A model generated the notes under the pieces. That model worked only from the letters and a program-made list of their open reading frames with translations, did no database searches and was not told where the DNA came from. Shown here piece after piece: positions 29,477 to 44,130 of a stretch of DNA of 64,000 bases (its first letter is position 1; every line of letters starts with the position of its first letter). The position numbers and the translations under genes are program-made. Location of the stretch: positions 75,199-139,198 of the forward strand of contig CAYGYT010000001.1 in assembly GCA_964354215.1 (NCBI GenBank). Direction: 5' to 3'. Origin of the DNA: an uncultured Eubacteriales bacterium (lineage in GTDB: Bacteria; Actinomycetota; Coriobacteriia; Anaerosomatales; CAVRZR01).

Positions 29477-32400
29477 CTACCCGCCGAGCAGAGTCACGAT
29501 AACCTGGTGCGCGCCGGGTTCCTCGGAGAGCGGTACTACGGGTTCGGCCAGCACCACCCCGTCGAGTTCGACCCGGGCGACGCCGCGGTTCACCCCGCGC
29601 GGGTTCTCGACACGTATGTGATAGCGAGTCGCGCCCGAGCGGTACGTGATCTCGTAGGCGGGCCAGTCCTTCGGGATGCATGGGTCCATGACGAGGAACC
29701 GCGTTCCGTCCCGAGCCTCGATCCTCAGGCCGTACAGGTGGTTCAGGGCGACGCGGTAGAACCACGCGGCCGAGCCGGTGTACCAGGTCCAGCCACCTCG
29801 GCCGACGTGAGGCTCGGCAGCATAGACGTCCGCCGCGATCACGTAGGGCTCGACGACGTAGCGGGCAGCTGCTTCGGCGGTGAGCGCGTGCGAGATGGGG
29901 TTCACGAGGTCGAACAGCGAGACCGCTTCGTCTCCGTCACCCTTGAGCAGGTACGCGAGGATCAGCCACACGGCGGCGTGCGTGTACTGGCCGCCGTTCT
30001 CGCGAACGCCCGGGACGTAGCCCTTGATGTAGCCGGGGTCGTGCGACATGCGGTCGAACGGGGGCGTGAGCAGCGCGACCAGGCCAGCCTCTCGGCGGAC
30101 GAGCTTCTCTTCAACGGCATCTATCGCCGCGCGGGTCCGCTCTGGGTTGCCGAAGCCCGAGATGACCGCCCAGCTCTGCGCGATGGCGTCGATGCGGCAC
30201 TCTTCGCTCGTGTGCGAGCCGAGCGGCGTGCCGTCGTCGAAGTAGGCGCGGCGATACCATCCGCCGTCCCAGCCCTCCAGCTCGACTGCCTGGGCGAGTC
30301 CGGCAGACCAAGCCCGGTAGTGCTGGGCACGAGCCGTCTCGCCGATGAGGTCGCACACCGATGCGAATCGCGAAGCCACGTAGGCGAGGAACCAGCCGAG
30401 CCAGACACTCTCGCCGCGACCCTCGTGGCCGACGCGGTTCATGCCGTCGTTCCAGTCACCGCCCTCCATGAGCGGGAGCCCGTGCGATCCAATGCCGAAG
30501 CGGCCGAGCGCTACCATGCAGTGCTCGAACACGGTGGCGGCCTGCTCGCTCACCGCAGGCTGCAGGTAGAGGTCCTCCTGTTCGGGCGGTAGCTCCGGCC
30601 CTTCGATGTAGGCGGTCCGCTCGTCCAAGACACTGGTGTCCCCGGTGGCCGTCACGTATTCGGCCACTACGAGTGGCAGCCAGTGGCGGTCGTCGGAGAT
30701 GTGCGTGCGCACGCCACGCCCCGAGTGCGGCTGCCACCAGTGCAGCACGTCGCCCGCTTCGAACTGGTGTCGCGACGCCTCCACGATCTGCTCGCGCACG
30801 AGGTCGGGCCGCACGAGCAGTAGCGCGAGCACGTCTTGAAGCTGGTCTCGAAAGCCGAACGCTCCGCTCGACTGGTACGTCCCCGTGCGGCCCCAGATAC
30901 GGCACGCGAGCGCCTGGTAGAGTGCGTTGCCGTTCACCATGATGTCGAGTGCGGCGTCCGGCGATTGCACCTGCACGCTGCCGAGAAGGTCGGTCCAGAA
31001 GGCCCGCGCGTCGGCTAGTGCCTTGTCGATCGCACCGTGTTGTCGGAGGCGCGCCACCGCGTCACGGGATTCCTCGAGCGTCGCTGTCTGGCCGAGGAGG
31101 AACGACACTTCGGCGGACTCGCCGGGCGCGATATCGACCTTGGTCATGAGCGCGCCGCAGTTGTCGAGGAAGCGACCGCTCTGGGCACCCAGGCCTTTCC
31201 GGTACATAGCAGCGGGATCGCCGGGGCGGCCGTTGCGGCCAACGAACTCGGTGCGGCTCGCGGTATAGGAGTGCAGCTCGGCATCGCACGCGAGAAACGC
31301 GCTTCGACCGGGGAAGTCCAGGTTGAAGTGGTTGTGCGCGGTCAGGATGGTGCTTTCGGCGTCGAACCAGGTGACGACGAGCTGCTGGGCGCGGCTTCGC
31401 GAATCCCCGAGCACCCACTCGACGAACTGCGTGACCGAGAGATGACGCTCCCTGGCACCGGTGTTGGTGAGGCGGAGTCGGACGATGCGCACCGGTGCAT
31501 CTACGGCGACGAACCAGTCGATCTCCTGCGAAAGCCCGTGGCTCGCATGTTCGAAGCGCGTGACACCCTTGCCGTGTCGGATGACGTACGGCTCTTCGTC
31601 TCTGACGGGCAGCGGCGTGGGGCTCCAGAACTCGCCGGTCTCCTCGTCGCGGATGTAGAGCGCTTCGCCGCTGCCGTCGCTCACGGCGTCGTTGTTCCAC
31701 GTGGTGATGCGGTTCTCGTGGCTGTTGAGCGCCCAGGTGCAGCCGACTCCGGCCTCGGAGACGAGGCACCCGAACTCCGCTGTCGCCATCACATTGACCC
31801 AGGGAGCGGGTGTGGTTTCGTCACCCTCGAGGACGATGACGTAGTCGCCGGTTGCGGTGTCGAACCCGCCGAATCCGTTGTCGAGGGTGAGCGCCGGGCG
31901 CTGGAACGGACTGGTCGGCCACGGTTCCGCCGATCTCGTCGGAACGAGCTCTCCGGGAACCGCGGGACGCGCCGCCCGACGGCTGAGCTGCAGCTCGATG
32001 CTCCCGCCGTCGCCGTCGAGCGTTGCCCGGGCGACCGAGAGAAGCAGGTTCAGCACGTCGGGATGCATCTGATCCGCGCGCCTGAGGTAGATGCCGCCCG
32101 GCTTGTCCACCAGTTGCAGCGCGTGGCCGGTGCGCACGAGGAGGCGCAGGCGGTCGTCGAGCTCGTCGGCGTACCCGGTGGGACGCGTGTTGAGGATGAC
32201 GAGGTCGGAGACGAGCCCCTTGTGGCGCCAGTACTGGTGAGCGAGGATCGCCTGCCGCACAAGTGGCGCGTGTTCGAGCTCCTCGACGCGCACGAGCAGG
32301 ATCGGATTGTCGCCTGAGATCCCGATGGACCACAGTCCGGACATCTGCAGCCCGTTTTCCACAGGTGTCTTCACCTTGAGTCGTGAGTTGGGGTCGGTCA

Positions 32401-35400
32401 GCAGAAGGCGGGACGCGAGGCGCTCGAGCGTCACGGCTTCGTCGGGCGTGATGCCGAGGTCCCTGAGCTCGAGCTGGGTTGCCGTCCACGCGAGGTCGAT
32501 CGCCCGCTGCGCGCTGCGCGCATCGCGGTACTTCTCGACGAGCTGCGTCGCCGTCTCGCGGTCCTCGGCGGCGCCGGTCGTGAACACGAGTCGAGCGCTC
32601 TCGCCCGGGCCCACCTTCACGGTACGCCGCAAGCTGCACGACGGATCGAGGACAGCACCTACGCCACGCCCCAGCTCACCTCCACGGCTGACCGCAAGCG
32701 GATCGGCCACGCCACGAAGCCGTCCGAGGAACGACGCACGGTCGGTCTCGAACGACCACTCGCAGAGCTCGTTCTCGCAGGCGAGTGCGTGGAGGCCCCA
32801 CAGCCGCGCCTCGGATGACGAGCGTGGGCGGCGAGTGAACAAGAGCGCGTTCAAGTCGTCGAGGACCTCGGTTTCGACGAACAGGTTGGAGAACGACTTG
32901 TGCGCCTGATCGGATGCCTGCGAGGTGAACGCGATCTCGAGGTAGGACGTGACCTCGAGGGTACGGCCCTCACGGCCGTGGTTCGTGATGGTCAGGCGGC
33001 GCACCTCGACGTCGTCTTCGGGAGAGACCGCGACCTCCACGCGCGTCTCGAGATTGCCATCGGTGCGCCGGTACTCGGCCTTGTCCGGCGCGAACGTGAC
33101 GAAGTAGTTGTCCGCAGGCGTGGGGCAGGGCTGGTGCGTTGCCGAGAACACGTGGCCGCTCTCGGTGTCTCGGATGTAGAAGAACGTGCCCCAGCAGTCG
33201 CGCGTGACGTCCTCGCGGTAGCGAGTGATCGCCACGTTCTCGAAGCGGCTGTATCCGCCGCCACCGTTGGTGACCATGACCGAGTAGCGGCCGTTTGAGA
33301 GGAAGTGCGTCGAAGGCACCGGTGTGTCCGCGGTCGGGTACGAGCGGGCGACCGGGGGCGGCAGCTCGCGGAGCGAGCGTACGAAGCGAACCTCCTCGAC
33401 GTGCGGGCTCGTGAGCTGCACGTGCCGGGGGACGCGCTCCTGGAGCAGGAGCTCCGCTGAGACCACGAGCGGGTCAGCCCGGAAGCGGTGTCGCATCTTC
33501 TCGCCGGTGAGCTCGTTTCCGAGTGCCACGAAGCTCATGCCCTGGTGGTGGGCAAAGTACGCCTTCACGACGGCACGCGTCTCTCCGGCCGGGATTCGGC
33601 CCGGCGTGTAGTCGATGGCCTCGTAGAAACCCCACCGGCCCTCGCCGCCCTGACGCGTGATGGCCCCCAGGTTGTCGAGCACGGACTGCGCGTCGACGGG
33701 AAGGGCGAGGAGCGACGCGTACGGGGCAACTACCACGTCTTCGGAGAGCCCTCGCTTGAGGCCAAGCCCTGGAACGCCGAAGGCTTGGTACTGGTAGGTG
33801 AGGTCTGCGTCTTTCGCGTTGAAGGCCGACTCGGAGACTCCCCAGGGAACACCGCGGTCCTTGCCGTACTGGATCTGCCGGCGAACCACGGTGCCGTACG
33901 TCTCGTCGAGCAGGGTCCCGTCCCACGAGCGCATCACCAAGAGAGGCATAAGGTACTCGAACATCGACGCGCTCCACGACACGAGCGCGCGGCCGGTTCC
34001 CGTCTGCGTGATCAGGCGCCCAAGCCGGAACCAGTGTTCCTGCGGGGCGTCGCCCTTCGCGATCGCGAGGAAACTCGCAAGCCGGCACTCGCTCGCGAGC
34101 ATGTCGTAGTACGAGCCGTCGAGGTGACCCTCGGCGGTGTTGAATCCGATGCTGAAGAGCGAGCGGTGCTCGTCGAAGAGCACGGTGAAGTCGGTGTGCT
34201 CCCACATCTGGCGCGCGATGTCGGTGTCGATCCTCAGCCGCGAGAGCAGCTCGACGCACTGCGGCCTCGCTGAGCGAATCCCTGCCGCGACGGCGTCGGC
34301 CCATTCCCGCGCGGCTTGCGTGTCCGCATCCTCGGCGCTCCACGACTCGTGCGCTATGAGCTCGAGCGCCTCCAGCACCTCTCCGAGGCCCTCGGCGATA
34401 CCTACGAGGCTCGGCACGAAGCGCGTGAGCGGTTCGAGCGCTGCCAGTCGCGGGTGAGCGGACAGTGCGGGCGGCATCTCGGAAAGCAGGCCCGCCCACG
34501 GTGTGAGGGCATCTATCACCCCGCGGATCGAACCCACATCGTCGATGACGGTCCTGACTGAGGAGACCACCCGTGCTCGAGCGGTGGAGGGGAGGTCGAG
34601 ATCGACAGTGTCATCCGGCGCGTAGACCGACTGGTGGAACGGCCTCTCGGCAGAGGTAGCCGAGAACCCGAGTTCCACGGGCTCGACGGCATGCGCAAGG
34701 CGGTCCGCCATGCCCGAAAGCCGAAGGAGCAGGCCGTTCCACTCACCGAGGGTCTGCGGAGGCTCCTGAAGCTCGAGCTCCCGCTCGAGATCGTCCAAGA
34801 CGTCCATCAGCGGCTGTTGCGGAAGCGAGTTGAGTGAGGCGCGCTCCACCACGACGTCCTCAAGCGCGAGTCTGACGGCATCACGGAGACCCGCCACGAG
34901 CTGCCGGTCGAGGAGCGGGGCCTCCGAGGCCTCGAGCAGGCCCACGCGCAGCACGAGAAGGTGTCCCGCGAGGTTGCCGCTGTCCACAGTCGATATGTAG
35001 TTGGGGCGCAGCGGCTCGAGGCTCTGGATGTCGTACCAGTTGTAGAAGTGGCCATGGAAGCGCTCGAGGCCGGCCATCGAGCTCAGCGTCGACGAGACCC
35101 GCTCGACGAGCCCGTCGATGGTCACGTAGCCCAGATCGTAGGCGTTCAGGTAGGCGAGCAACTGCAGTCCGACGTTCGTGGGCGATGTTCTCCACGCGAC
35201 CTCGCCCTGGGGGTCCTCCTGGAAGTTGTCGGGGACCAGGTAGTGGCCTTCGTCGGTGACGAATGTGTCGAAGTAGCGCCACGTCTTGCGGGCGATCCGC
35301 CGAAGGAGCTGGTGTTGCGGCCCCGTGAGTGGCACGGGCTCGCGCACCTTTATGGGCTGGGAGATTCGCCAGGCGATGAGCGGCGCCAGCGCCCACGCGA

Positions 35401-38374
35401 GTGCGAGAGGAGCGGCGATCAACGCACGAACGGGAATTGGGATTGTCGCGACGGCGAGTAGGGCGACAGACGCGAGCGACGAAGGCCACATCCGATGCAC
35501 GAAACCGGCGCGTGTCGAACCCAGTCGCCGCGCCGCATCATCGGCGGTTTCCCACTCGAGCAGGTGTTTGCGCGAGACGAACGTGCGCCACATTGCGCGT
35601 GCGATCGCGTCCGCCGCTACCCACGAGCGGTAGGGCAGCACACTCAGCTCGAACAGCGAACGTGAGAGGTCTCGGCCGGTATCGCGCGCTATCGCGCGTA
35701 CCGACGAGCCGAGGTGGACCGAGCGCGGGCGCATGAGGATCGCGTCCACGAAGCCGAACACGACTGGGAAGAGCACGAAGAGCGTGGCGAAGAGTGGCCA
35801 CACGAGCGCGGGCGACCCGAGCGCGAGCCAGCCGAGGGTTGCCAGCAGCACGCTTGTCGGCGCGACGAGGCTCCGGCGTAGATTGTCGATGATCTTCCAG
35901 CGGTGCAGAGACGTAAGCGGGTTCGCCGTGAGCCGCCCCTGCGCGTCGCGTGCGCTCAGGAACAGCCACGGGACGGTCTGCCAGTCACCGCGTATCCAGC
36001 GGTGCACGCGCGAGAGATCGGCCGCGAAGCTCGCCGGGTAGTCGTCGAGCACCTCCACGTCCGTTGCGAGCGCAGTCCTCAGAAACGAGCCCTCGATCAA
36101 GTCGTGGGAGAGCATCGAGTCTTCAGGGAATCGCTCTTCGAGCACGCCGAGGAAGACGGCGAGTTCGAAGATGCCCTTCCCCGTGAAACTGCCCTCCCCG
36201 AACACGTCCTGGTAGGTATCAGAAGCAGCGCCGACGTACGGGTCCAAGCCAGTGGCTCCCGAGTACATCCAGGCGAAGCGGCTCTTGCGCGAGCCGGGCA
36301 GCGTCATGCTCACGCGCGGCTGGACGAGCCCGTAGCCGCCCTCCACGCGCAGCTCCCCGTGACGCCACTGAGCCCGGTTCATGGGGTGTGCGATCGTCGA
36401 GACGAGCTTGCGAGCGGCATCTCTCGGCAACTGCGTGTCTGCATCCAGCGTGACCACGAACGTGACGTCTCGCCGAAAACCGATCTCGCCCATCTTGTGC
36501 GTGAACGCGGAGCCGTCCTCGCCGTGAAGTGCTCGCGCAAGCTCGAGGAGCGCGCCTCGTTTGCGTTCCCAGCCCATCCAGAGGCCCTCGGACTCGTTGT
36601 AGGTGCGACCCCGGATGAACAGGTGGAACGGCCGTACGCCGTGCTCGACCTCGTAGCGGTCGTTGAGCTGGCTCACAGCGCGCACGGCCGCCTCGACGAT
36701 TTCGCCGTCGTCGGGACGCTCTGGCTCCGGCGCCCCCCGCAAGTCGCCGAGGAGCGCGTACGCGATGTTGGGATCGCGGTTGGCGAGGTATGAGATCTCA
36801 AGGTTGTCGACGACCGCCTGCGTCGAGGGCACCGAGGACAGCAGCGCCGGAACGACCACAAGCGTGCGGTTCGACTCCGCGACCGGGTGTGTGAAGTCCA
36901 GCTTGAGGAGCGAACGGGGCGGGTAGATGCCGGCGAGCGTACGGTTCGTGACCGTGAGCGCTACCTCGGAAAGCGGGAAGATCGCCAGAAGTGCGACGAT
37001 CGTCGTACCGAGAGCGGGGCCTCCCGTGAGCGCGACCCACCAGGTAGCGAGTCCGACGAGGAGTGCCGTCAGGCCGCCGAGCAGCGTCCCGTAGATCAGG
37101 CCGCGGTGGCGCAGAGGCCCGCGGTATGCCCATTCGCGCCGGGTGCGGCGATAACCGACGGTAGGCTCGAGCTCGTAGCGACCCGCGCTCACCAGGTAGT
37201 ACGCAACGTGTCCTCGGACGAGATCGCTCGGGTCACGTGCGAGTGCATCGCTCGCGAATCCGAGGACCGCCTCGACGAGTTCGGTCTCAGTGAATGAGCA
37301 GCGCCTCGCCATCTGCTCGATCGCGTGCCGGCATCGGTCCCGGCTCGCGAAGTCCATCCGCGGGTACACGCCGGCGGGATCCTCGCAAAGCGCCTGCTCG
37401 ACCACGCTCACCGTCTCGAAGAACGCCTTCCACTCGAAGGCGTCGAAGAACCGGATGGTCGTGATCGAGTTGGCGATTGACACCTGGTTGGCGGCTTGTT
37501 CCTGTTGCTGAGCGTGTACGTGTTCCTCGAGCACGATGCCGAGCGAGGATACCCTGCCTTGCAGCCAGGCATTTACGGGCTCGCCGCCGGCTTCCATGCC
37601 TCCGAGGCGCTGGGACAGGCGTCCGAAGAACGGTGGGGTCTGATCGACGGACGCCGTCTCGAGCTCCTGTATCAGGCCTGGCAGCTCCTCCGGAGCGTTC
37701 TGAACGGTAAGTAGGACGCGCTCTGCCCACTCGTCCGCGGAAAGCTCGGCCTCGTGCGACAGGACTACGCGGCGCGACAGCCGCCGCAGGTTCTCGACGA
37801 CCGCGATCCTGAGCATGATCGGGACGGCCCATAACTCGCCGATGGAGAGAGGAGAGACATCCTGGTACGCCTCGACGAAGCGCAGGAGGTAGGGCTCGTC
37901 GACGCGCGCGTCGGTGTGGACAAGCAGCTCAACCGCAGCCTCGAACACCCGTGGGTACCCTGCGTAGGGGCCGCTTGTCAGCCGGGGCAACTCGATTCCG
38001 TAGCGCGCCGGCAGATCTTCGCGCACGGCGAGGAGCTGCTCCTCGATCAGGTAGTAGTTGTCGAGCAGCCACTCGCTTGCCGGTGAGAGCGAGAGCTGCG
38101 CGCGTGTAGCCGCCGAGAGAACGATGTTGTCGTGTGCAAGACCCGCAGCGGCAGCGTCAGCGAGTGCGATGAGCGGTGTGGTGCGGATAGGTGGCTGCGT
38201 GACCGGTTCTTGGAGCGAGGCGAGCGCGCGCGCCTCGTCCGCCAGCCGGTCTGCGTTGAGCAGGTCGCCGCGGAAGGGAGCGTCATCTGTCATGACCTGG
38301 GGCGGCTCGACGGTCGCTCGCGGTCTGCGCTGCTCGGTTTCCCCCACCCGTTCCTCCAGTCGCGCACCGGGCAT
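29477..38374 (-). CDS. cyclic beta-1,2-glucan synthase-like giant multidomain protein (GT84 glycosyltransferase + (alpha/alpha)6 glucan-processing/cyclization-like region + GH94 phosphorylase-like C-terminus)
   Basis: Single uninterrupted frame. N-terminal ...FRGDLLNADRLADEARALA as in NdvB/ChvB-type proteins. TM segments. GT84-type motifs MGWERKRG and VTLDADTQLPRDAA. Central motifs SPTNVGLQLLA, STVDSGNLAGHL, WSASMFEYLMP and YQAFGVPGLGLKRG. GH94-type motifs RDQLQD, HWWQPHSGRGVRT, EGGDWNDGMN and GGQYTHAAVW. Start uncertain: ATG at 38374 or 38293. The track's extension to 38854 runs into the divergent gene and lower-GC DNA. Confidence 0.88.
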   Translation of the reverse strand: MPGARLEERVGETEQRRPRATVEPPQVMTDDAPFRGDLLNADRLADEARALASLQEPVTQPPIRTTPLIALADAAAAGLAHDNIVLSAATRAQLSLSPASEWLLDNYYLIEEQLLAVREDLPARYGIELPRLTSGPYAGYPRVFEAAVELLVHTDARVDEPYLLRFVEAYQDVSPLSIGELWAVPIMLRIAVVENLRRLSRRVVLSHEAELSADEWAERVLLTVQNAPEELPGLIQELETASVDQTPPFFGRLSQRLGGMEAGGEPVNAWLQGRVSSLGIVLEEHVHAQQQEQAANQVSIANSITTIRFFDAFEWKAFFETVSVVEQALCEDPAGVYPRMDFASRDRCRHAIEQMARRCSFTETELVEAVLGFASDALARDPSDLVRGHVAYYLVSAGRYELEPTVGYRRTRREWAYRGPLRHRGLIYGTLLGGLTALLVGLATWWVALTGGPALGTTIVALLAIFPLSEVALTVTNRTLAGIYPPRSLLKLDFTHPVAESNRTLVVVPALLSSVPSTQAVVDNLEISYLANRDPNIAYALLGDLRGAPEPERPDDGEIVEAAVRAVSQLNDRYEVEHGVRPFHLFIRGRTYNESEGLWMGWERKRGALLELARALHGEDGSAFTHKMGEIGFRRDVTFVVTLDADTQLPRDAARKLVSTIAHPMNRAQWRHGELRVEGGYGLVQPRVSMTLPGSRKSRFAWMYSGATGLDPYVGAASDTYQDVFGEGSFTGKGIFELAVFLGVLEERFPEDSMLSHDLIEGSFLRTALATDVEVLDDYPASFAADLSRVHRWIRGDWQTVPWLFLSARDAQGRLTANPLTSLHRWKIIDNLRRSLVAPTSVLLATLGWLALGSPALVWPLFATLFVLFPVVFGFVDAILMRPRSVHLGSSVRAIARDTGRDLSRSLFELSVLPYRSWVAADAIARAMWRTFVSRKHLLEWETADDAARRLGSTRAGFVHRMWPSSLASVALLAVATIPIPVRALIAAPLALAWALAPLIAWRISQPIKVREPVPLTGPQHQLLRRIARKTWRYFDTFVTDEGHYLVPDNFQEDPQGEVAWRTSPTNVGLQLLAYLNAYDLGYVTIDGLVERVSSTLSSMAGLERFHGHFYNWYDIQSLEPLRPNYISTVDSGNLAGHLLVLRVGLLEASEAPLLDRQLVAGLRDAVRLALEDVVVERASLNSLPQQPLMDVLDDLERELELQEPPQTLGEWNGLLLRLSGMADRLAHAVEPVELGFSATSAERPFHQSVYAPDDTVDLDLPSTARARVVSSVRTVIDDVGSIRGVIDALTPWAGLLSEMPPALSAHPRLAALEPLTRFVPSLVGIAEGLGEVLEALELIAHESWSAEDADTQAAREWADAVAAGIRSARPQCVELLSRLRIDTDIARQMWEHTDFTVLFDEHRSLFSIGFNTAEGHLDGSYYDMLASECRLASFLAIAKGDAPQEHWFRLGRLITQTGTGRALVSWSASMFEYLMPLLVMRSWDGTLLDETYGTVVRRQIQYGKDRGVPWGVSESAFNAKDADLTYQYQAFGVPGLGLKRGLSEDVVVAPYASLLALPVDAQSVLDNLGAITRQGGEGRWGFYEAIDYTPGRIPAGETRAVVKAYFAHHQGMSFVALGNELTGEKMRHRFRADPLVVSAELLLQERVPRHVQLTSPHVEEVRFVRSLRELPPPVARSYPTADTPVPSTHFLSNGRYSVMVTNGGGGYSRFENVAITRYREDVTRDCWGTFFYIRDTESGHVFSATHQPCPTPADNYFVTFAPDKAEYRRTDGNLETRVEVAVSPEDDVEVRRLTITNHGREGRTLEVTSYLEIAFTSQASDQAHKSFSNLFVETEVLDDLNALLFTRRPRSSSEARLWGLHALACENELCEWSFETDRASFLGRLRGVADPLAVSRGGELGRGVGAVLDPSCSLRRTVKVGPGESARLVFTTGAAEDRETATQLVEKYRDARSAQRAIDLAWTATQLELRDLGITPDEAVTLERLASRLLLTDPNSRLKVKTPVENGLQMSGLWSIGISGDNPILLVRVEELEHAPLVRQAILAHQYWRHKGLVSDLVILNTRPTGYADELDDRLRLLVRTGHALQLVDKPGGIYLRRADQMHPDVLNLLLSVARATLDGDGGSIELQLSRRAARPAVPGELVPTRSAEPWPTSPFQRPALTLDNGFGGFDTATGDYVIVLEGDETTPAPWVNVMATAEFGCLVSEAGVGCTWALNSHENRITTWNNDAVSDGSGEALYIRDEETGEFWSPTPLPVRDEEPYVIRHGKGVTRFEHASHGLSQEIDWFVAVDAPVRIVRLRLTNTGARERHLSVTQFVEWVLGDSRSRAQQLVVTWFDAESTILTAHNHFNLDFPGRSAFLACDAELHSYTASRTEFVGRNGRPGDPAAMYRKGLGAQSGRFLDNCGALMTKVDIAPGESAEVSFLLGQTATLEESRDAVARLRQHGAIDKALADARAFWTDLLGSVQVQSPDAALDIMVNGNALYQALACRIWGRTGTYQSSGAFGFRDQLQDVLALLLVRPDLVREQIVEASRHQFEAGDVLHWWQPHSGRGVRTHISDDRHWLPLVVAEYVTATGDTSVLDERTAYIEGPELPPEQEDLYLQPAVSEQAATVFEHCMVALGRFGIGSHGLPLMEGGDWNDGMNRVGHEGRGESVWLGWFLAYVASRFASVCDLIGETARAQHYRAWSAGLAQAVELEGWDGGWYRRAYFDDGTPLGSHTSEECRIDAIAQSWAVISGFGNPERTRAAIDAVEEKLVRREAGLVALLTPPFDRMSHDPGYIKGYVPGVRENGGQYTHAAVWLILAYLLKGDGDEAVSLFDLVNPISHALTAEAAARYVVEPYVIAADVYAAEPHVGRGGWTWYTGSAAWFYRVALNHLYGLRIEARDGTRFLVMDPCIPKDWPAYEITYRSGATRYHIRVENPRGVNRGVARVELDGVVLAEPVVPLSEEPGAHQVIVTLLGG

Positions 38375-38615
38375 GTCTCCGGCGCGTGCTCTCGCGGCTG
38401 CGTCGTGCGCGTTGGTTGGCGCCTTGCTACTTCCAAGGACAGGCACCGGTAGCGCATCTATAGTATCCCCCGAGCGTGCGTCGGCAGGAGAGCGAGTTTG
38501 CACGAGAAATACCCATGGGGGTATCATCGCGTAGGTGCACACGCGTTGTCGCACGCATGCGGCGTACATCGAGTACCTCGGACCGAGATCGCTTTGGCCC
38601 CGTGAGGAGTGTTTG

Positions 38616-39332
38616 ATGAAGAGCAAATGGATCGTGTGGGTGGCCGTGGCGGCCGTTCTCGTGGGCGTCGCGTATCTCGCGCTGAAACCCGCCTCGGTAG
38701 CCCAGGGCGTCGTGGACGTCGACAGCGGCAAGCTCGAAGAGCTGCTCGCGGCGTCCCCCTCGCCGAGGATCGTTGACGTCCGTACTCCCGGGGAGTTCCA
38801 GGCGGGGCACCTCAAGGACGCCGAGAACGTACCCGTCGACCAGGTCGAGTCCATTGCGCAGTCGTGGGACCGGTCTCAGCCGCTCGTCGTCTACTGCGCC
38901 ACTGGTGCACGGTCGGCGACGGCGGTTCAACAGTTGCAGAGCATGGGGTTCAAGACCATCTACCACTTCTCGCAGGGCCTCGTCGCCTGGCAGGGTGCGC
39001 TCGATACGGGTGATGAGGGGCCGGTCGCGCAGGCACCCGCCGTCAAGACCAACAGCAAGCCGGTGATGTATGAGTTCTTCACCGACTGGTGACCAAGCTG
39101 CAAGGAGATGAAGCCTGTGGTCGACAGGCTAGAGAAGGCGTACGAGGGCAAGGTGGAGTTCCGGCGGATCAACGTCGACACCGACAAGCAGGGCGCCGCA
39201 CTGATGCAGCAGTTCAATGCGCAGTACGTGCCGACGTTCGTGTTCATCAACGCCGACGGGTCGACGGCTGACCTAAAGGTGGGAGCGCTCAAGAAGGATC
39301 AGCTCGTGGCAGCGCTCGACAGACTCAAGTAG
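38616..39332 (+). CDS. membrane-anchored or secreted rhodanese-thioredoxin fusion, predicted selenoprotein (in-frame TGA at 39090-39092 read as Sec, giving W-U-P-S-C)
   Basis: ATG at 38616 with GAGGAG 7 nt upstream. N-terminal TM WIVWVAVAAVLVGVAYLAL. Rhodanese domain with active-site loop CATGARS. ORFs 38535..39092 and 39108..39332 are in the same frame. The read-through product aligns with the thioredoxin fold on both sides of the TGA (cis-Pro YVPTFVF, KVGALKKDQL). Confidence 0.7.
39112..39130 (+). promoter_or_regulatory. candidate bacterial SECIS hairpin for the TGA at 39090
   Basis: AGCCUGU-GGUCG-ACAGGCU: 7-bp stem and 5-nt G/U-containing loop. The loop starts 26 nt after the UGA. Confidence 0.5.
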
Positions 39333-39870
39333 GTGTCTGCAGCAGGTAAGCCGAGGTTGTCGTTTTGCAAAGATTGTTGGCGCGTTTCGCCCTCGGATGG
39401 GGTATACCTGTGATAGGTCGCCCGAACGTTGGGCGAGAAGTCCATCGGCCGCAAAGGAGTGGATGGGTACAGGTGAGAGACACCGACATAACCCAGACTC
39501 GACCGGGATGGCAGATGAAGGCCTTCGGCAGGCGGTACGGGTAACGGAAAACGGTTCGTACGTCACTGGTTCGTCGGTTCGAGAAGTTCGGACGAGGTGC
39601 CTGAAGGGGCACCTGCAACGGCAAGGATCGTAGAGCCGCCGAAGAGCTGGGCATAAGCCCTTGGAGCACTGGGGATGCGGACGGGAGCGGGAAGCTCGCC
39701 GGACAAGAGTCCCCAAGGATAGCCTTTTGGAGGGGTGCCTCGGGCGGTGCGAAGGCCATCCCGGTGTTCTTCTCTCAGATGCTGCGATAACCAGCAGCGT
39801 GAGAATGTCGAGTCGCACGGGCAGCAACGGAAGGGCGGACCCGAGAGGGCCCGCCCTTCTTGCTTCTCTT
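39333..39870 (+). ncRNA. candidate large structured RNA or structured 3' UTR, class unknown
   Basis: About 540 nt with no credible ORF on either strand and lower GC than neighbouring DNA. Many local hairpins, including AGGUGCC-UGAAGG-GGCACCU, UCGCCC-GAACGUU-GGGCGA and GGUG-AGAGA-CACC. An 11-bp perfect long-range complement joins 39502..39512 (ACCGGGAUGGC) and 39755..39765 (GCCAUCCCGGU). Ends in a plus-strand terminator. Strand assignment is tentative. Confidence 0.35.
39830..39870 (+). terminator. intrinsic terminator (may also serve glnK on the minus strand)
   Basis: GAAGGGCGGACCC-GAGA-GGGCCCGCCCTTC: 12 of 13 positions paired, GNRA loop, followed on the plus strand by TTGCTTCTCTT. Confidence 0.6.
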
Positions 39871-39888
39871 GGATCGACGCGGCAGCGG

Positions 39889-40227
39889 CTACAACGCGTC
39901 CGGGCCAGTCTCTCCCGTTCGAATTCGAACCACTTCCTCGACGGGTGTGACGAAGATCTTGCCGTCGCCGATGCGATTGGTTCTGGCGGCGGCCACTACG
40001 GCGTCGATTACGTCTTTGACCTGGTGGTCATGTACGACTGCGGTGATCGAGATCTTCGGCAGCAGATCGATGACGTACTCCTCGCCGCGCCATTGCTGCG
40101 TGATGCCCTTCTGGATGCCATGTCCTTTGACCTCGCAGACAGTAAGGCCGTGGTGACCAAGCCCGACGAGCGCGTCCTTGACCGACTCGAGGCGCTCGGG
40201 GCGGACAATCGATTCGATTCGCTTCAT
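39889..40227 (-). CDS. glnK: P-II nitrogen regulatory protein
   Basis: 112 aa, MKRIESIVRPERLESVKDAL...GDGKIFV. The T-loop region is present. Its start abuts the amtB stop (TAGATG). Confidence 0.95.
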   Translation of the reverse strand: MKRIESIVRPERLESVKDALVGLGHHGLTVCEVKGHGIQKGITQQWRGEEYVIDLLPKISITAVVHDHQVKDVIDAVVAAARTNRIGDGKIFVTPVEEVVRIRTGETGPDAL

Positions 40228-41901
40228 CTAGGTCTCACTCCCCGCAGGCTTCGGATGCCGATGTGAAGGTCCCATGGGGACCTCGTCAAGCGAACCCTCG
40301 CCGAGCGGGCCCGAGCCGGCCATGTCGGGGTACGCGAGCACGCCCATCTCGCCGGCGTCGAGGCCGGCGATCTCGTCCTCGGCTGAGGAACGCAGACCCA
40401 TGACGGCGCTCTGCACTCGGAAGAACGCGTAGTGCATGCCGAACGCCCACGCGAAGACGACGACGACCGCGACGCCCTGCGCGATGAGCTGGCTCGCATC
40501 GCCGTAGAAGAGGCCGCGCACGCCACCCTCGACGCCGTTCCAGCCGGCGCCGTAGCTGCCGTCGGCGAACAGGCCGAGCGCGATCATGCCCCACGCCCCG
40601 TTCACGCCGTGTACCGACGACGCACCGACGGGGTCATCGACCTTGAGCACACGCTCGATGAAGACGACGGATCCTACGACCAGGAAGCCGGCGATGGAGC
40701 CGATCAGGACCGCCGCCCACGGCGTGACGAAGGCGCAGGGGGCGGTGACGGCCACAAGGCCCGCGAGCATGCCGTTCACGGCCATGGAGGGGTCGGGGTG
40801 ACCCCACAGACGCCAGACCAGGAACATGGCCGCCATACAGCCGGCGGACGCCGCAAGCAGCGTGTTGCCGATGATCATCGAGAACCGGAGGTCCGTCGCC
40901 GAGAGTGTCGACATGCCGTTGAAGCCGAACCAGCCGAAGACAAGGATGATCGTGCCGAGGATCGCCATCGGGATGTTGTGGCCCGGGATGGCGACCGGCG
41001 TGCCATCCGCCTTGAACTTCCCAATGCGTGGCCCTAAGACGACTGCGCCGGCGAGTGCCGCGAATCCTCCGACTGCGTGTACGACCGAAGAGCCCGCGAA
41101 GTCGACAGCGCCGTGGCCGAGCCCGAAGTTGGCGCCGAGCGTAGCCAGCCAGCCGCCGCCCCAGACCCACATGCCGTAGATCGGGTAGACGATCGCGCCC
41201 ATGAACACACCGAACGGGATGAACGCGCTGAACTTCCAGCGCTCGGCCATCGCGCCGGTCACGATCGTCGCCGCCGTGTCCATGAACACGAGCTGGAACA
41301 GGAAGAACGCGAACACGCCGGGGTCGTACGTGCCGTCAGCCAGCGAGCCCACAAAGAAGCCCTTCGTACCGGCGAGCGCCTGGCCGGCCACCTTGATGGC
41401 CGGAGCCGTGAGGATGCCTTCGGCGCCGGGTGCCCAGTAGAACGCGCCCAGCGAACCGAATTGCAGTCCGAAGCCGAACGCCCAGTAGGCGAGCGCGCCC
41501 ACTGCGAAGATGACGAAGTTAGTCATTGCGACGTGCGCGGCGTTCTTCGCCCGGCAGAAGCCCGTCTCCACGAGCATGAAGCCCGCCTGCATGAAGAAGA
41601 TGAGCGCCATGCCGACGGTGATGAAGAAGATGTTGAGAGCCACTTTGGTGTTGCCTAGGTCGGCAGCGGCCTCCGCGAGGGTCGGAGCGCCCGCATTGGC
41701 TGAAGTCACCGCCGCGGCGCCACCGTAGTTGGAGCCCACCGGATCAGCGCCTGCGAACGCGACCATGACGGTCATGATCACGAGCGCGGCGAGCGCCAGC
41801 ACGCCGGTGCGTACCGCCGCCCTTCTGAGAATGCTCGGCATCTGCCCGCGCGCTGCGGCGATGTCGAAGTCGGCGAAACCTTTGACGAATCGAGTAAGCA
41901 T
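40228..41901 (-). CDS. amtB: ammonium transporter
   Basis: Amt family, multi-TM, with FGFNGMS-like and VHGVNGAWG motifs. Start moved to the ATG at 41901, which is preceded by AAGGAGGTGGAGG. Acidic C-terminal extension of about 60 aa. Confidence 0.92.
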   Translation of the reverse strand: MLTRFVKGFADFDIAAARGQMPSILRRAAVRTGVLALAALVIMTVMVAFAGADPVGSNYGGAAAVTSANAGAPTLAEAAADLGNTKVALNIFFITVGMALIFFMQAGFMLVETGFCRAKNAAHVAMTNFVIFAVGALAYWAFGFGLQFGSLGAFYWAPGAEGILTAPAIKVAGQALAGTKGFFVGSLADGTYDPGVFAFFLFQLVFMDTAATIVTGAMAERWKFSAFIPFGVFMGAIVYPIYGMWVWGGGWLATLGANFGLGHGAVDFAGSSVVHAVGGFAALAGAVVLGPRIGKFKADGTPVAIPGHNIPMAILGTIILVFGWFGFNGMSTLSATDLRFSMIIGNTLLAASAGCMAAMFLVWRLWGHPDPSMAVNGMLAGLVAVTAPCAFVTPWAAVLIGSIAGFLVVGSVVFIERVLKVDDPVGASSVHGVNGAWGMIALGLFADGSYGAGWNGVEGGVRGLFYGDASQLIAQGVAVVVVFAWAFGMHYAFFRVQSAVMGLRSSAEDEIAGLDAGEMGVLAYPDMAGSGPLGEGSLDEVPMGPSHRHPKPAGSET

Positions 41902-42136
41902 TCGCCTCCACCTCCTTGTCGGATAGTGGTCCGAGTGAACGGACCGTTTCAGGGACATGAGGTGCCGTACGTCTTTGGACGGCGGGGCTCCGGGGTGCGC
42001 TCGCCCGGGGCGGGCTTGTGAGGTTCAGCCTGCTCAAAGGGTCGGGGGTCTATGTTGCGAAGTGGTTTCGGCGCTCGAACGCTCTCGTGAAACCTGCGTT
42101 GCAGTCCCGTCGGGGCACCCCGACTGGAGCGGTGCC

Positions 42137-44054: not shown

Positions 44055-44130
44055 GGGGACGTAGCTCAGTTGGGAGAGCGCGGGCTTTGCAAGCCTGAGG
44101 TCGAGGGTTCGAGCCCCTTCGTCTCCACCA
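44055..44130 (+). tRNA. tRNA-Ala (anticodon TGC), CCA encoded
   Basis: Acceptor GGGGACG/CGTCTCC with the G3:U70 Ala identity pair, anticodon loop TT-TGC-AA, T-arm GGTTCGAGCCC, 3' ACCA. Confidence 0.95.

Follow-up and report, generated by a model that had tools for sequence, protein, structure and literature searches.

What occupies the 0.5-kb gap between a rhodanese/selenocysteine (Sec)-thioredoxin gene (plus strand, upstream) and a convergent glnK gene (minus strand, downstream) in an uncultured Anaerosomatales bacterium? The gap lies in a 64,000-nucleotide (nt) stretch of contig CAYGYT010000001.1 (assembly GCA_964354215.1, positions 75,199 to 139,198), which as a whole is called the window below and in whose numbering all coordinates are given. 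A first-pass annotation of these letters had marked 39333-39870 as a candidate novel large RNA of the plus strand, and the proposal is borne out by a fold that is conserved in ~50 relatives with abundant compensatory changes. We regard the element as a genuine plus-strand RNA gene with a new, uncatalogued fold, at a probability of about 0.8. The element spans 39399-39871 (+) and comprises a promoter-like box, a 5' domain, a core closed by helix P1, a tail hairpin and an intrinsic terminator. The RNA gene itself would run from ~39415 to 39871 (+), which makes it ~455 nt long here and ~300 nt in short-form relatives. Of the interval first proposed, the first ~65 nt after the thioredoxin stop codon (39333-39398) fall away as unconserved spacer outside the RNA. 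What is new about the RNA is its family and its fold; its general kind, a stand-alone structured non-coding RNA (ncRNA), is familiar.

Homologues, covariation and strand

We collected ~50 distinct homologues, anchored on the thioredoxin (Trx), in one case on amtB, and for the rest found by a DNA pattern scan of metagenomes. The C-terminal piece of the Trx protein (74 aa) has 83 homologues (70-113 aa, mostly 73-76 aa), and ten of them, traced to contigs, are followed by the same arrangement: rhodanese/Trx, a 400-720-nt gap and usually convergent glnK-amtB. In the 11 Trx-anchored loci (L033-L038 and L093-L097), the gaps align, and the core is conserved far above the spacers. Two blocks invariant in these loci supplied the search pattern GGGCANAAGC-N(65-95)-CGGTGCGAAGGCC, which returned 54 metagenome loci, ~45 of them true members by alignment and 9 chance matches. 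A covariance model of the 3' half of the RNA (134 positions) separates members (61-130 bits) from chance pattern matches (15-23 bits). Locus L218, reached from an amtB homologue of 'Actinobacteria bacterium HGW-Actinobacteria-7' (PHET01000004.1) and kept outside both pattern and model building, carries the RNA between a glnK cluster and a Sec-Trx gene and matches at 61 bits (E = 3e-14). In the window, the model finds a single copy (127 bits; next best match, 13.6 bits). An identical glnK protein is encoded on six Logan contigs of the same species, where the intergenic sequence differs at 3 positions, all in L004; the runs in which the identical locus is found include ERR3804373-78 and ERR4334728/35.

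The case for an RNA gene is carried by base pairs that change together. When a 42-pair model was scored on 38 aligned sequences, 94.1% of 1588 cells were paired versus 86.6% in shuffles, and 24 of the 42 pairs, with 137 cells, were changed on both sides versus 15.7 and 40.8 in shuffles. On every measure, none of 500 shuffles scored as high, and slid controls were only 31-51% paired. Scored on 47 sequences, the 3' half has 92.9% paired cells and both-sided changes at 15 of its 24 pairs. RNAalifold, run on 38 sequences (alignment A4), recovers the fold independently. Judged from these alignments, the fold is shown to be under purifying selection at the RNA level. The first-pass annotation had called the region highly structured and suggested a search for covariation in relatives; the figures above agree with the one and answer the other.

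Both strands fold better than dinucleotide shuffles (plus strand, -241 kcal/mol, z = -3.5; minus strand, -211 kcal/mol, z = -5.2), so that folding energy alone leaves the strand undecided. However, G-U and U-G pairs are frequent (pair 189/293 is U-G in 35 sequences, 4/311 is G-U in 9 and 23/182 is G-U in 9) and would be A.C mismatches on the other strand. Thus, the functional strand is the plus strand, which the U-rich tail of the terminator on that strand also supports.

The RNA is not protein-coding. The region had been described as ORF-free, which does not hold literally: mechanical open reading frames (ORFs) of 184, 144 and 78 aa exist in it. None of six region ORFs has a match at E<=0.1 in Pfam, a check that did not extend to the large protein databases, and 1-nt indels in close relatives disrupt the frames, leaving no protein signal of the degraded gene that had been considered. 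Coding was rejected as a candidate explanation: a Shine-Dalgarno (SD)-like motif (AAAGGAG, GAGGAGG or GAGGUGA) with start codons opens ORFs, but their frames and ends differ between subfamilies, and since these ORFs read P1 in different frames per subfamily and end differently, there is no conserved peptide.

Nor does the RNA match any Rfam family, those of raiA, OLE, GOLLD, ROOL and HEARO included. At gathering thresholds, Rfam 15 finds two tRNAs only in the whole 64 kb, in line with the first-pass failure to match the region to RNase P, transfer-messenger RNA (tmRNA), signal recognition particle (SRP) RNA, 6S or the common riboswitches. At E<=10, the 701 nt of 39250-39950 return terminator-type noise and nothing on the core, and the loci of 15 relatives return tRNAs and noise, again with nothing on the core. 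The only match below E = 0.01, in the Rfam check that had been suggested, is to RF02346 (ar35), with 27.7 bits versus a gathering threshold of 45, at 39764-39865 and with 46 model positions skipped; in the relative L047, it drops to 23.7 bits (E = 0.81). Because the ar35 match covers only the tail hairpin and terminator, it is read as generic terminator similarity. ARAGORN detects no tmRNA in the window, only tRNA-Ile and tRNA-Ala, the latter at 44055-44130, 4 kb beyond the RNA. The CR-I/CR-V (P4) motifs of RNase P and the SRP domain-IV motifs were not found by eye, and the literature on the raiA motif, Ms1 and a 50-genome GC-IGR survey holds nothing corresponding.

The named neighbours are Coriobacteriia, Coriobacteriales or Anaerosomatales metagenome-assembled genomes (MAGs), and the cultured Anaerosoma tenue is moderately close for one neighbouring protein. 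The distribution appears confined to Anaerosomatales-like Coriobacteriia. A protein-anchored scan of genome contigs with the fused rhodanese-Trx found only distant, mostly Cys-type relatives from other phyla, none with the RNA. In viral contigs, a relaxed pattern gave more than 120 matches, and none of the 80 loci fetched scored above 13.3 bits with the covariance model; with such scores, these are chance matches.

The fold, element by element

As modelled, the core is shown to consist of two stacked three-way junctions (P1/P2/P5 and P5/P3/P4) closed by P1. Its purine-rich joining strands are nearly invariant: AGAUGAA (J1/2), GG, GAAG (J5/1), AGGAUA (J3/4), UGC/AAGAG and the loop UUUGGAG. The 5' domain and the P2 insert are resolved to a lower standard than the core. 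The features, from 5' to 3', are:

39399-39408 (+): promoter-like box GGGGTATACC, -10-like, core GGGTAT
39415-39498 (+): 5' domain, three hairpins and the linker CAGACUCG
39418-39436 (+): 5'-domain hairpin UCGCCC-GAACGUU-GGGCGA
39442-39466 (+): 5'-domain hairpin CCAUC/GAUGG, with the purine-rich loop motif AAAGGAG at 39453-39459
39472-39484 (+): 5'-domain hairpin GGUG-AGAGA-CACC
39502-39512 (+): P1, 5' strand ACCGGGAUGGC, paired with 39755-39765
39513-39519 (+): J1/2, AGAUGAA (consensus AGAKRAA), nearly invariant in 38 sequences and outside the fixed search pattern
39520-39648 (+): P2, pairs 39520-21/39647-48 and 39523-33/39635-44
39534-39634 (+): P2 apical insert, ~100 nt, lineage-specific, containing the next two hairpins
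39535-39561 (+): hairpin GUACG...CGUAC
39595-39614 (+): hairpin AGGUGCC-UGAAGG-GGCACCU
39649-39660 (+): local hairpin GGGC-AUAA-GCCC, competing with P5a
39651-39664 (+): P5, 5' strand, GCAU (P5b), AA bulge, GCCC (P5a), UU and GG (P5c), paired with 39738-39750
39670-39715 (+): P3 region, P3 at 39670-75/39710-15, with the internal loop UGC/AAGAG beyond
39679-82/39701-04 (+): P3a, GGAC/GGAC in the window's clade (G-C, tandem G.A/A.G, C-G)
39685-39697 (+): P3 apical hairpin GAGC-GGGAA-GCUC
39716-39736 (+): J3/4 (AGGAUA) and P4, stem 39722-25/39733-36, loop UUUGGAG
39737-39754 (+): P5, 3' strand (CC, UC, GGGC, G, GUGC), and J5/1 (GAAG)
39755-39765 (+): P1, 3' strand GCCAUCCCGGU, paired with 39502-39512
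39773-39804 (+): tail hairpin UCUCA-GAU-GCUGC-GAUAACCA-GCAGC-G-UGAGA, inner GCUGC/GCAGC hairpin 39781-39798
39830-39871 (+): intrinsic terminator, stem 39830-42/39847-59, GAGA loop, U-rich tail TTGCTTCTCTT

All seven hairpins named in the first-pass annotation exist in the sequence and could be located. Its long-range pairing, now P1, is a perfect match of 11 base pairs in a repeat search and covaries in relatives, with 6 of 11 pairs changed on both sides and 95.9% of cells paired. Variants include UCCGUGAUGGC/GCCAUCACGGA, GCCGAAAUGGC/GCCAUUUCGGU and ACCGGGGUGGU/GCCGCCCCGGU, and the exchanges comprise GG to AA with CC to UU, and A-U to G-C. At the base of P2, 5 of 7 pairs are changed on both sides, as are all 6 pairs of P3 (for example, A-U 24 and G-C 20). 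P3a is fully Watson-Crick in other clades (GGCC/GGCC, GUCC/GGAC or GACC/GGUC), and the closing pair of P4 is G-C (24), U-A (7), G-U (5) or A-U (4), with the loop UUUGGAG kept in most members.

P5 is a long interrupted helix that encloses P3/P3a and P4. In P5a, C-G is exchanged for U-A at two positions, and members found independently of the pattern show C-G to U-A at 39658/39744 (L097) and C-G to G-C (L095). P5b, invariant in the pattern-retrieved set, where it could not vary, is GCUU/AAGC (A-U to U-A) in the independently found L218; we consider it the least secure helix of the alignment. In the segment 39737-39754, CGGUGCGAAGGCC is fixed by the search pattern and reads GCGAAGCGAAGG in L094, GCGCGGCGAAGG in L095 and AGCGAAGCGAAGG in L218, all pattern-independent. 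One hairpin of the first-pass annotation, GGGC-AUAA-GCCC, is present as sequence but is probably not the native pairing: the local GGGC/GCCC pairing shows zero changes on both sides, whereas GCCC covaries with the distal GGGC at 39742-39745, which favours P5a. These two are the only mutually exclusive pairings that were observed, and the RNA may switch between the local and the distal one.

Peripheral parts vary more. About half of the family lacks the P2 apical insert and has a simple hairpin as P2. In the window and its long-form relatives, this insert carries two to four copies of a GUCGGU(U/A)CG-like box (cggttcgtacg, tggttcgtcggttcgagaagttcgg), and its GGUUCGA resembles a T-loop sequence; the repeats may form a lineage-specific tertiary-contact module. 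The motif G(U/C)GAGG(U/A)G ... GGUG(G/A)AA(G/A) of the 5' domain is common to most subfamilies, and the domain is reduced or different in L038/L093, L087 and L095. The 5'-domain motifs AAAGGAG, GAGGAGG and GAGGUGA each complement overlapping parts of the canonical 3' tail of 16S rRNA (CACCUCCUUU); these SD-like motifs are absent from L038/L093 and L095, and no conserved ORF follows them. A role of the SD-like motif as an exposed ribosome-binding decoy would not be general, because in some clades the motif lies inside a stem (GAGGUG/CAUCUC). The tail hairpin is found in the window and L047; other relatives have a different GC-rich hairpin at the same place.

An all-against-all search for column covariation yielded no supportable pseudoknot or tertiary pair, the signal being dominated by phylogenetic and G-U noise. 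The unsupported pairings include that of the 5'-domain GAGG with CCUC before P5 and that of the P4 loop with anything. The P5a sequence GCCCUU is complementary to AAGGGC of the terminator in the window, but this candidate anti-terminator is lost in L033 and was set aside as a GC-rich coincidence.

Boundaries and gene neighbourhood

The RNA is flanked in the window by the following genes:

~38610-39332 (+): rhodanese-thioredoxin fusion gene, with an in-frame UGA at 39090-39092 in a W-U-P-S-C motif and its stop codon at 39330-39332
39889-40227 (-): glnK, 3' end at 39889, convergent with the RNA and preceded by amtB
40228-41958 (-): amtB, preceding glnK

The GC content of the RNA region is 0.57-0.635 versus 0.60-0.71 in the flanks, as the first-pass annotation had noticed. 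Compared with L033, L034 and L036, nucleotide identity is 86-88% in the core and 76-88% in the 5' domain, next to 76-82% in the Trx coding sequence and 78% in that of glnK; it is 38-49% in the spacer after the Trx stop codon and 49-59% in the tail.

At the 5' boundary, GGGTATA is invariant in 13 long-form relatives, and the sequence on both sides of it is variable. Other clades have at this position a G(G/C)GTATA(T/A)T-type sequence, GGCGTATATT, GGGTATAAT, GGGAAT or GGGTAG, and in most complete members a G(G/C)GTAT(A) box stands ~90-118 nt upstream of P1. No covarying pairing partner of the GGGTAT box was found. The box is a candidate promoter that would drive the RNA's own transcription, and its position, together with a conserved (G)TAG, puts the predicted start at ~39415. 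A Sigma-B/SigF-type reading of GGGTAT/GGGAAT is attractive, as it suits the -10, but no consistent GTTT -35 is found at the right spacing. Between the Trx stop codon and the box, the short-form relatives and L094-L096 have a covarying hairpin of -14 to -22 kcal/mol that runs into UUCGUCGUUU; ~35 unconserved nt, among them a weak -35-like hexamer (GTGACG), then lead up to the box. We read this arrangement as Trx terminator, promoter and RNA, in this order.

The 3' boundary would be the intrinsic terminator. A GC-rich hairpin directly before a U-rich tract, which defines such terminators, is found at 39830-39871, and a scan reports it as the sole plus-strand terminator-like site in 38400-40400; the GNRA-capped terminator described at first pass is this GAGA hairpin (39830-39859) with its tail. 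It folds at -25.6 kcal/mol (z = -3.2). All members have a very stable GC-rich hairpin (-24 to -33 kcal/mol) and a T-rich tail at the 3' end, conserved in form and not in sequence. The sole sigma-70-like promoter match in the same 2 kb lies elsewhere, at 38436-38464 (+) (AGGACA-17-TATAGT), upstream of the rhodanese/Sec-Trx gene and within the mechanical 5' extension of a giant ORF.

This giant ORF (29477-38854, minus strand, 3125 aa as listed) is divergent from the Sec-Trx gene and syntenic in most relatives. Its relatives carry Glycoamylase, GH94 beta-supersandwich and Glyco_hydro_94 domains (cyclic beta-1,2-glucan synthase or glycan phosphorylase type), and since the mechanical ORF overlaps the rhodanese gene, its true start must be further downstream. 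The Sec-Trx protein has an N-terminal hydrophobic segment and a W-U-P-S-C redox motif in which selenocysteine replaces the first Cys. Because of the UGA, gene callers split its gene everywhere and report the 74-aa C-terminal piece only; the 83 homologues of this piece are similarly short, from which it follows that the Sec codon is conserved. A bacterial-type selenocysteine insertion sequence (SECIS) hairpin, AGCCUGU-GGUCG-ACAGGCU, lies at 39113-39131, 22 nt 3' of the UGA, and is conserved in relatives as AGCC(U/C)GU-GGUCG-AC(A/G)GGCU with a compensatory change from U-A to C-G. With this SECIS in its own ORF, the Sec-Trx gene does not need the RNA as one, and a SECIS in the 3' untranslated region (UTR) was rejected; moreover, the RNA begins over 300 nt 3' of the UGA, past the stop codon.

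The Trx gene is upstream of the RNA in ~43 of the 44 loci with enough upstream DNA, and the linkage holds across Trx divergence down to ~44% identity. The exception, L057, has a divergent baeRF-family gene upstream, a lipoprotein gene downstream and no Trx gene nearby. Downstream, glnK is found in ~36 of 48 loci (~75%), and elsewhere tRNA-Cys/tRNA-Ala or unrelated genes follow. L041, L065, L068, L077 and L086 lack glnK-amtB; past the RNA terminator they have a TGCTATAAT box and then a tRNA gene that we read as tRNA-Cys (GCA). At this place, Rfam reports a tRNA in L065, L068 and L086, and in L078 a tRNA-Ala directly follows. Other loci have tandem duplications of nitrogen genes beside the RNA: L218 (4001-8730) holds as many as two copies of amtB and four of glnK, and two or three glnK copies are found among L094, L097, L069 and L076. 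A cis-acting leader or riboswitch on the same strand was rejected, as the next gene is either convergent glnK, a tRNA with its own TGCTATAAT box or unrelated; with glnK in only ~36 of 48 loci, the RNA is no leader of the downstream gene, and a role in glnK-amtB expression is not general.

Interpretation and comparison with known RNAs

Several points weigh against an independent RNA gene with the properties described. The pattern behind most of the homologues fixes 22 nt, which introduces ascertainment bias; for the invariant GGGCAnAAGC and CGGUGCGAAGGCC, as for the P5b pairing, the evidence accordingly comes from only ~12 independently found members, and two of these, L094 and L095, have A.A or A.G as the third P5b pair. 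Common descent inflates the counts of covarying pairs, and the Trx synteny could be simple inheritance of gene order within one order. A strict sigma-70 scanner calls the proposed promoter neither in the window nor in relatives, the -10-like hexamer of the window's clade is often without the canonical final T (TATACC, TATAAC), and this clade has no recognisable -35 element. A strict terminator scanner does not call the hairpins of the relatives, whose T-tracts fall short of its rule; high-GC actinobacterial terminators often have imperfect U-tracts. In the window, as the first-pass annotation had stated, a scan finds no terminator between the Trx stop codon and the RNA. Finally, we infer the transcript ends, the promoter and transcription itself from sequence, and the same is true of any trans-acting, binding-site mechanism.

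With these reservations, transcription of the RNA would begin at a promoter of its own, the GGGTAT-type box at 39399-39408, and stop at the terminator at 39830-39871. The core is compact, with a double three-way junction and invariant junction purines, the peripheral domains are optional, and the RNA is single-copy and has no cis target. These features point to an RNA that acts in trans, a folded molecule in which the junction nucleotides might make up an active site or the place where a protein partner or small ligand binds; we would give this somewhat less than an even chance. Its type of role would be that of a ribonucleoprotein (RNP) scaffold, sensor or ribozyme and not that of a cis leader, a SECIS or a simple base-pairing small RNA (sRNA). 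The near-universal linkage to the Sec-thioredoxin could reflect co-regulation or a shared redox, selenium or sulfur-related role, which is conjecture. More specific, and in our view unlikely in its entirety, is a new functional RNA class (ribozyme, ligand sensor or RNP core) of Anaerosomatales-type Coriobacteriia that would be coupled to the membrane-anchored rhodanese/selenocysteine-thioredoxin, for example through a selenium, sulfur or redox signal or through antisense control of glnK-amtB. Base-pairing or another role takes up the remainder.

The leading rival explanation, though improbable, makes the element part of the rhodanese/Sec-thioredoxin mRNA, as a long structured 3' UTR or as an RNA processed from that UTR, acting in cis on the stability, translation or Sec decoding of the mRNA. 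The missing terminator in the window would allow co-transcription, and the element directly follows the same-strand Trx gene in ~43 of 44 informative loci, including all 11 Trx-anchored ones, the linkage to glnK being much looser. However, the 65 nt from the stop codon to the box are unconserved in the window, and in the short forms and L094-L096 the covarying hairpin with UUCGUCGUUU, the unconserved spacer and a GGCGTATATT box come between the Trx gene and the RNA. Moreover, L057 has the RNA without a nearby Trx gene, and Sec decoding is served by the conventional in-ORF SECIS. The first-pass annotation had named both an independent RNA and a very long 3' UTR; the box, and the short-form hairpin before it, favour the independent transcript.

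A plus-strand RNA gene could also be a riboswitch-like sensor with its own promoter and a ligand-controlled terminator, read-through of which would yield an antisense RNA over glnK-amtB and regulate nitrogen uptake. Riboswitch-controlled antisense transcripts have precedents in Listeria (B12/AspocR) and Clostridium (S-box/ubiG), the junction-rich core of ~150 nt with its invariant joining strands is of aptamer-like scale, and the terminator abuts the glnK 3' end in ~75% of loci, among them the amtB-anchored L218. We nevertheless hold this to be very unlikely: ~12 loci combine an intact RNA and terminator with no downstream glnK (tRNA-Cys/tRNA-Ala with promoter-like sequence, or other genes), P1 and the terminator are 60-70 nt apart, across a linker whose hairpin is not conserved, no conserved anti-terminator alternative was found in the alignments, and the terminator hairpins are very stable. 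The chance that models have overlooked a diverged known RNA (RNase P RNA, tmRNA, SRP RNA, 6S/Ms1, raiA motif and the like) is slighter still, close to negligible. Size, high conservation, a strong terminator and single copy are housekeeping-like, and raiA-motif RNAs, which are not obviously cis-regulatory, have been reported in Coriobacteriia (PMC10861870). However, no Rfam 15 family was matched at E<=10 on the core, in the 701 nt around it or in the 15 relatives' loci, and the tmRNA, RNase P and SRP searches were equally negative. The consensus fold is multibranched and not the long irregular rod of 6S/Ms1, no 6S match was obtained, and the Ms1 neighbourhood is different, with HAD-hydrolase and oxidoreductase genes (PMC9130861). 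On these grounds, the 6S/Ms1 candidate was rejected.

Large bacterial RNAs with intricate, strongly conserved folds are rare. Those whose role has become clear historically proved to be ribozymes, RNP cores or sensors, and the orphans that are left (OLE, raiA, ROOL and GOLLD) are under active study. The present RNA adds a new fold with ~50 diverse sequences, clear boundaries, a strand and a secondary structure, material that suffices for an Rfam seed alignment and for the design of probing, pull-down or cryo-EM work. The order has at least one cultured member, Anaerosoma tenue, which, should it carry the RNA, may open the way to genetics and to the mapping of transcripts. That the RNA nearly always follows a selenoprotein gene is an unusual clue that can be put to the test. 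For annotation, the RNA accounts for a gap of 0.5 kb that is conserved but 'empty' in many Coriobacteriia MAGs from the subsurface and from sediments.

Among known systems, ar35, an alphaproteobacterial sRNA, resembles the RNA only at the tail hairpin and terminator. DapZ/MicL-type sRNAs are 3'-UTR-associated, with an internal promoter, and are short and poorly structured, with an unstructured seed. Like them, the RNA directly follows a same-strand coding gene and has its box near the gene end, and in the present genome it would share with that gene the only terminator downstream; unlike them, it is 300-455 nt long, its helices and junctions are what is conserved, and in many relatives a terminator-like hairpin precedes it. 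Three-way-junction riboswitch aptamers offer a likeness in the ~150-nt core, covarying helices, invariant joining strands and a terminator downstream, whereas the RNA is followed by no same-strand ORF, has an 80-100-nt 5' domain and a long non-conserved linker, and matches no riboswitch model. Its closest likeness is to the orphan large ncRNAs raiA, OLE, ROOL/GOLLD and T-large, which are stand-alone genes of several hundred nt with multistem junctions and optional inserted domains, and which share with it invariant nucleotides outside helices, single copy and a lineage-restricted range. The raiA motif and the present RNA also both occur in Coriobacteriia, neither being obviously cis-regulatory (PMC10861870). 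The RNA is set apart from these orphans by the absence of sequence or model similarity and, so far, of a detected pseudoknot, and by its two stacked three-way junctions, its place downstream of a Sec-thioredoxin gene and its Anaerosomatales-like range.

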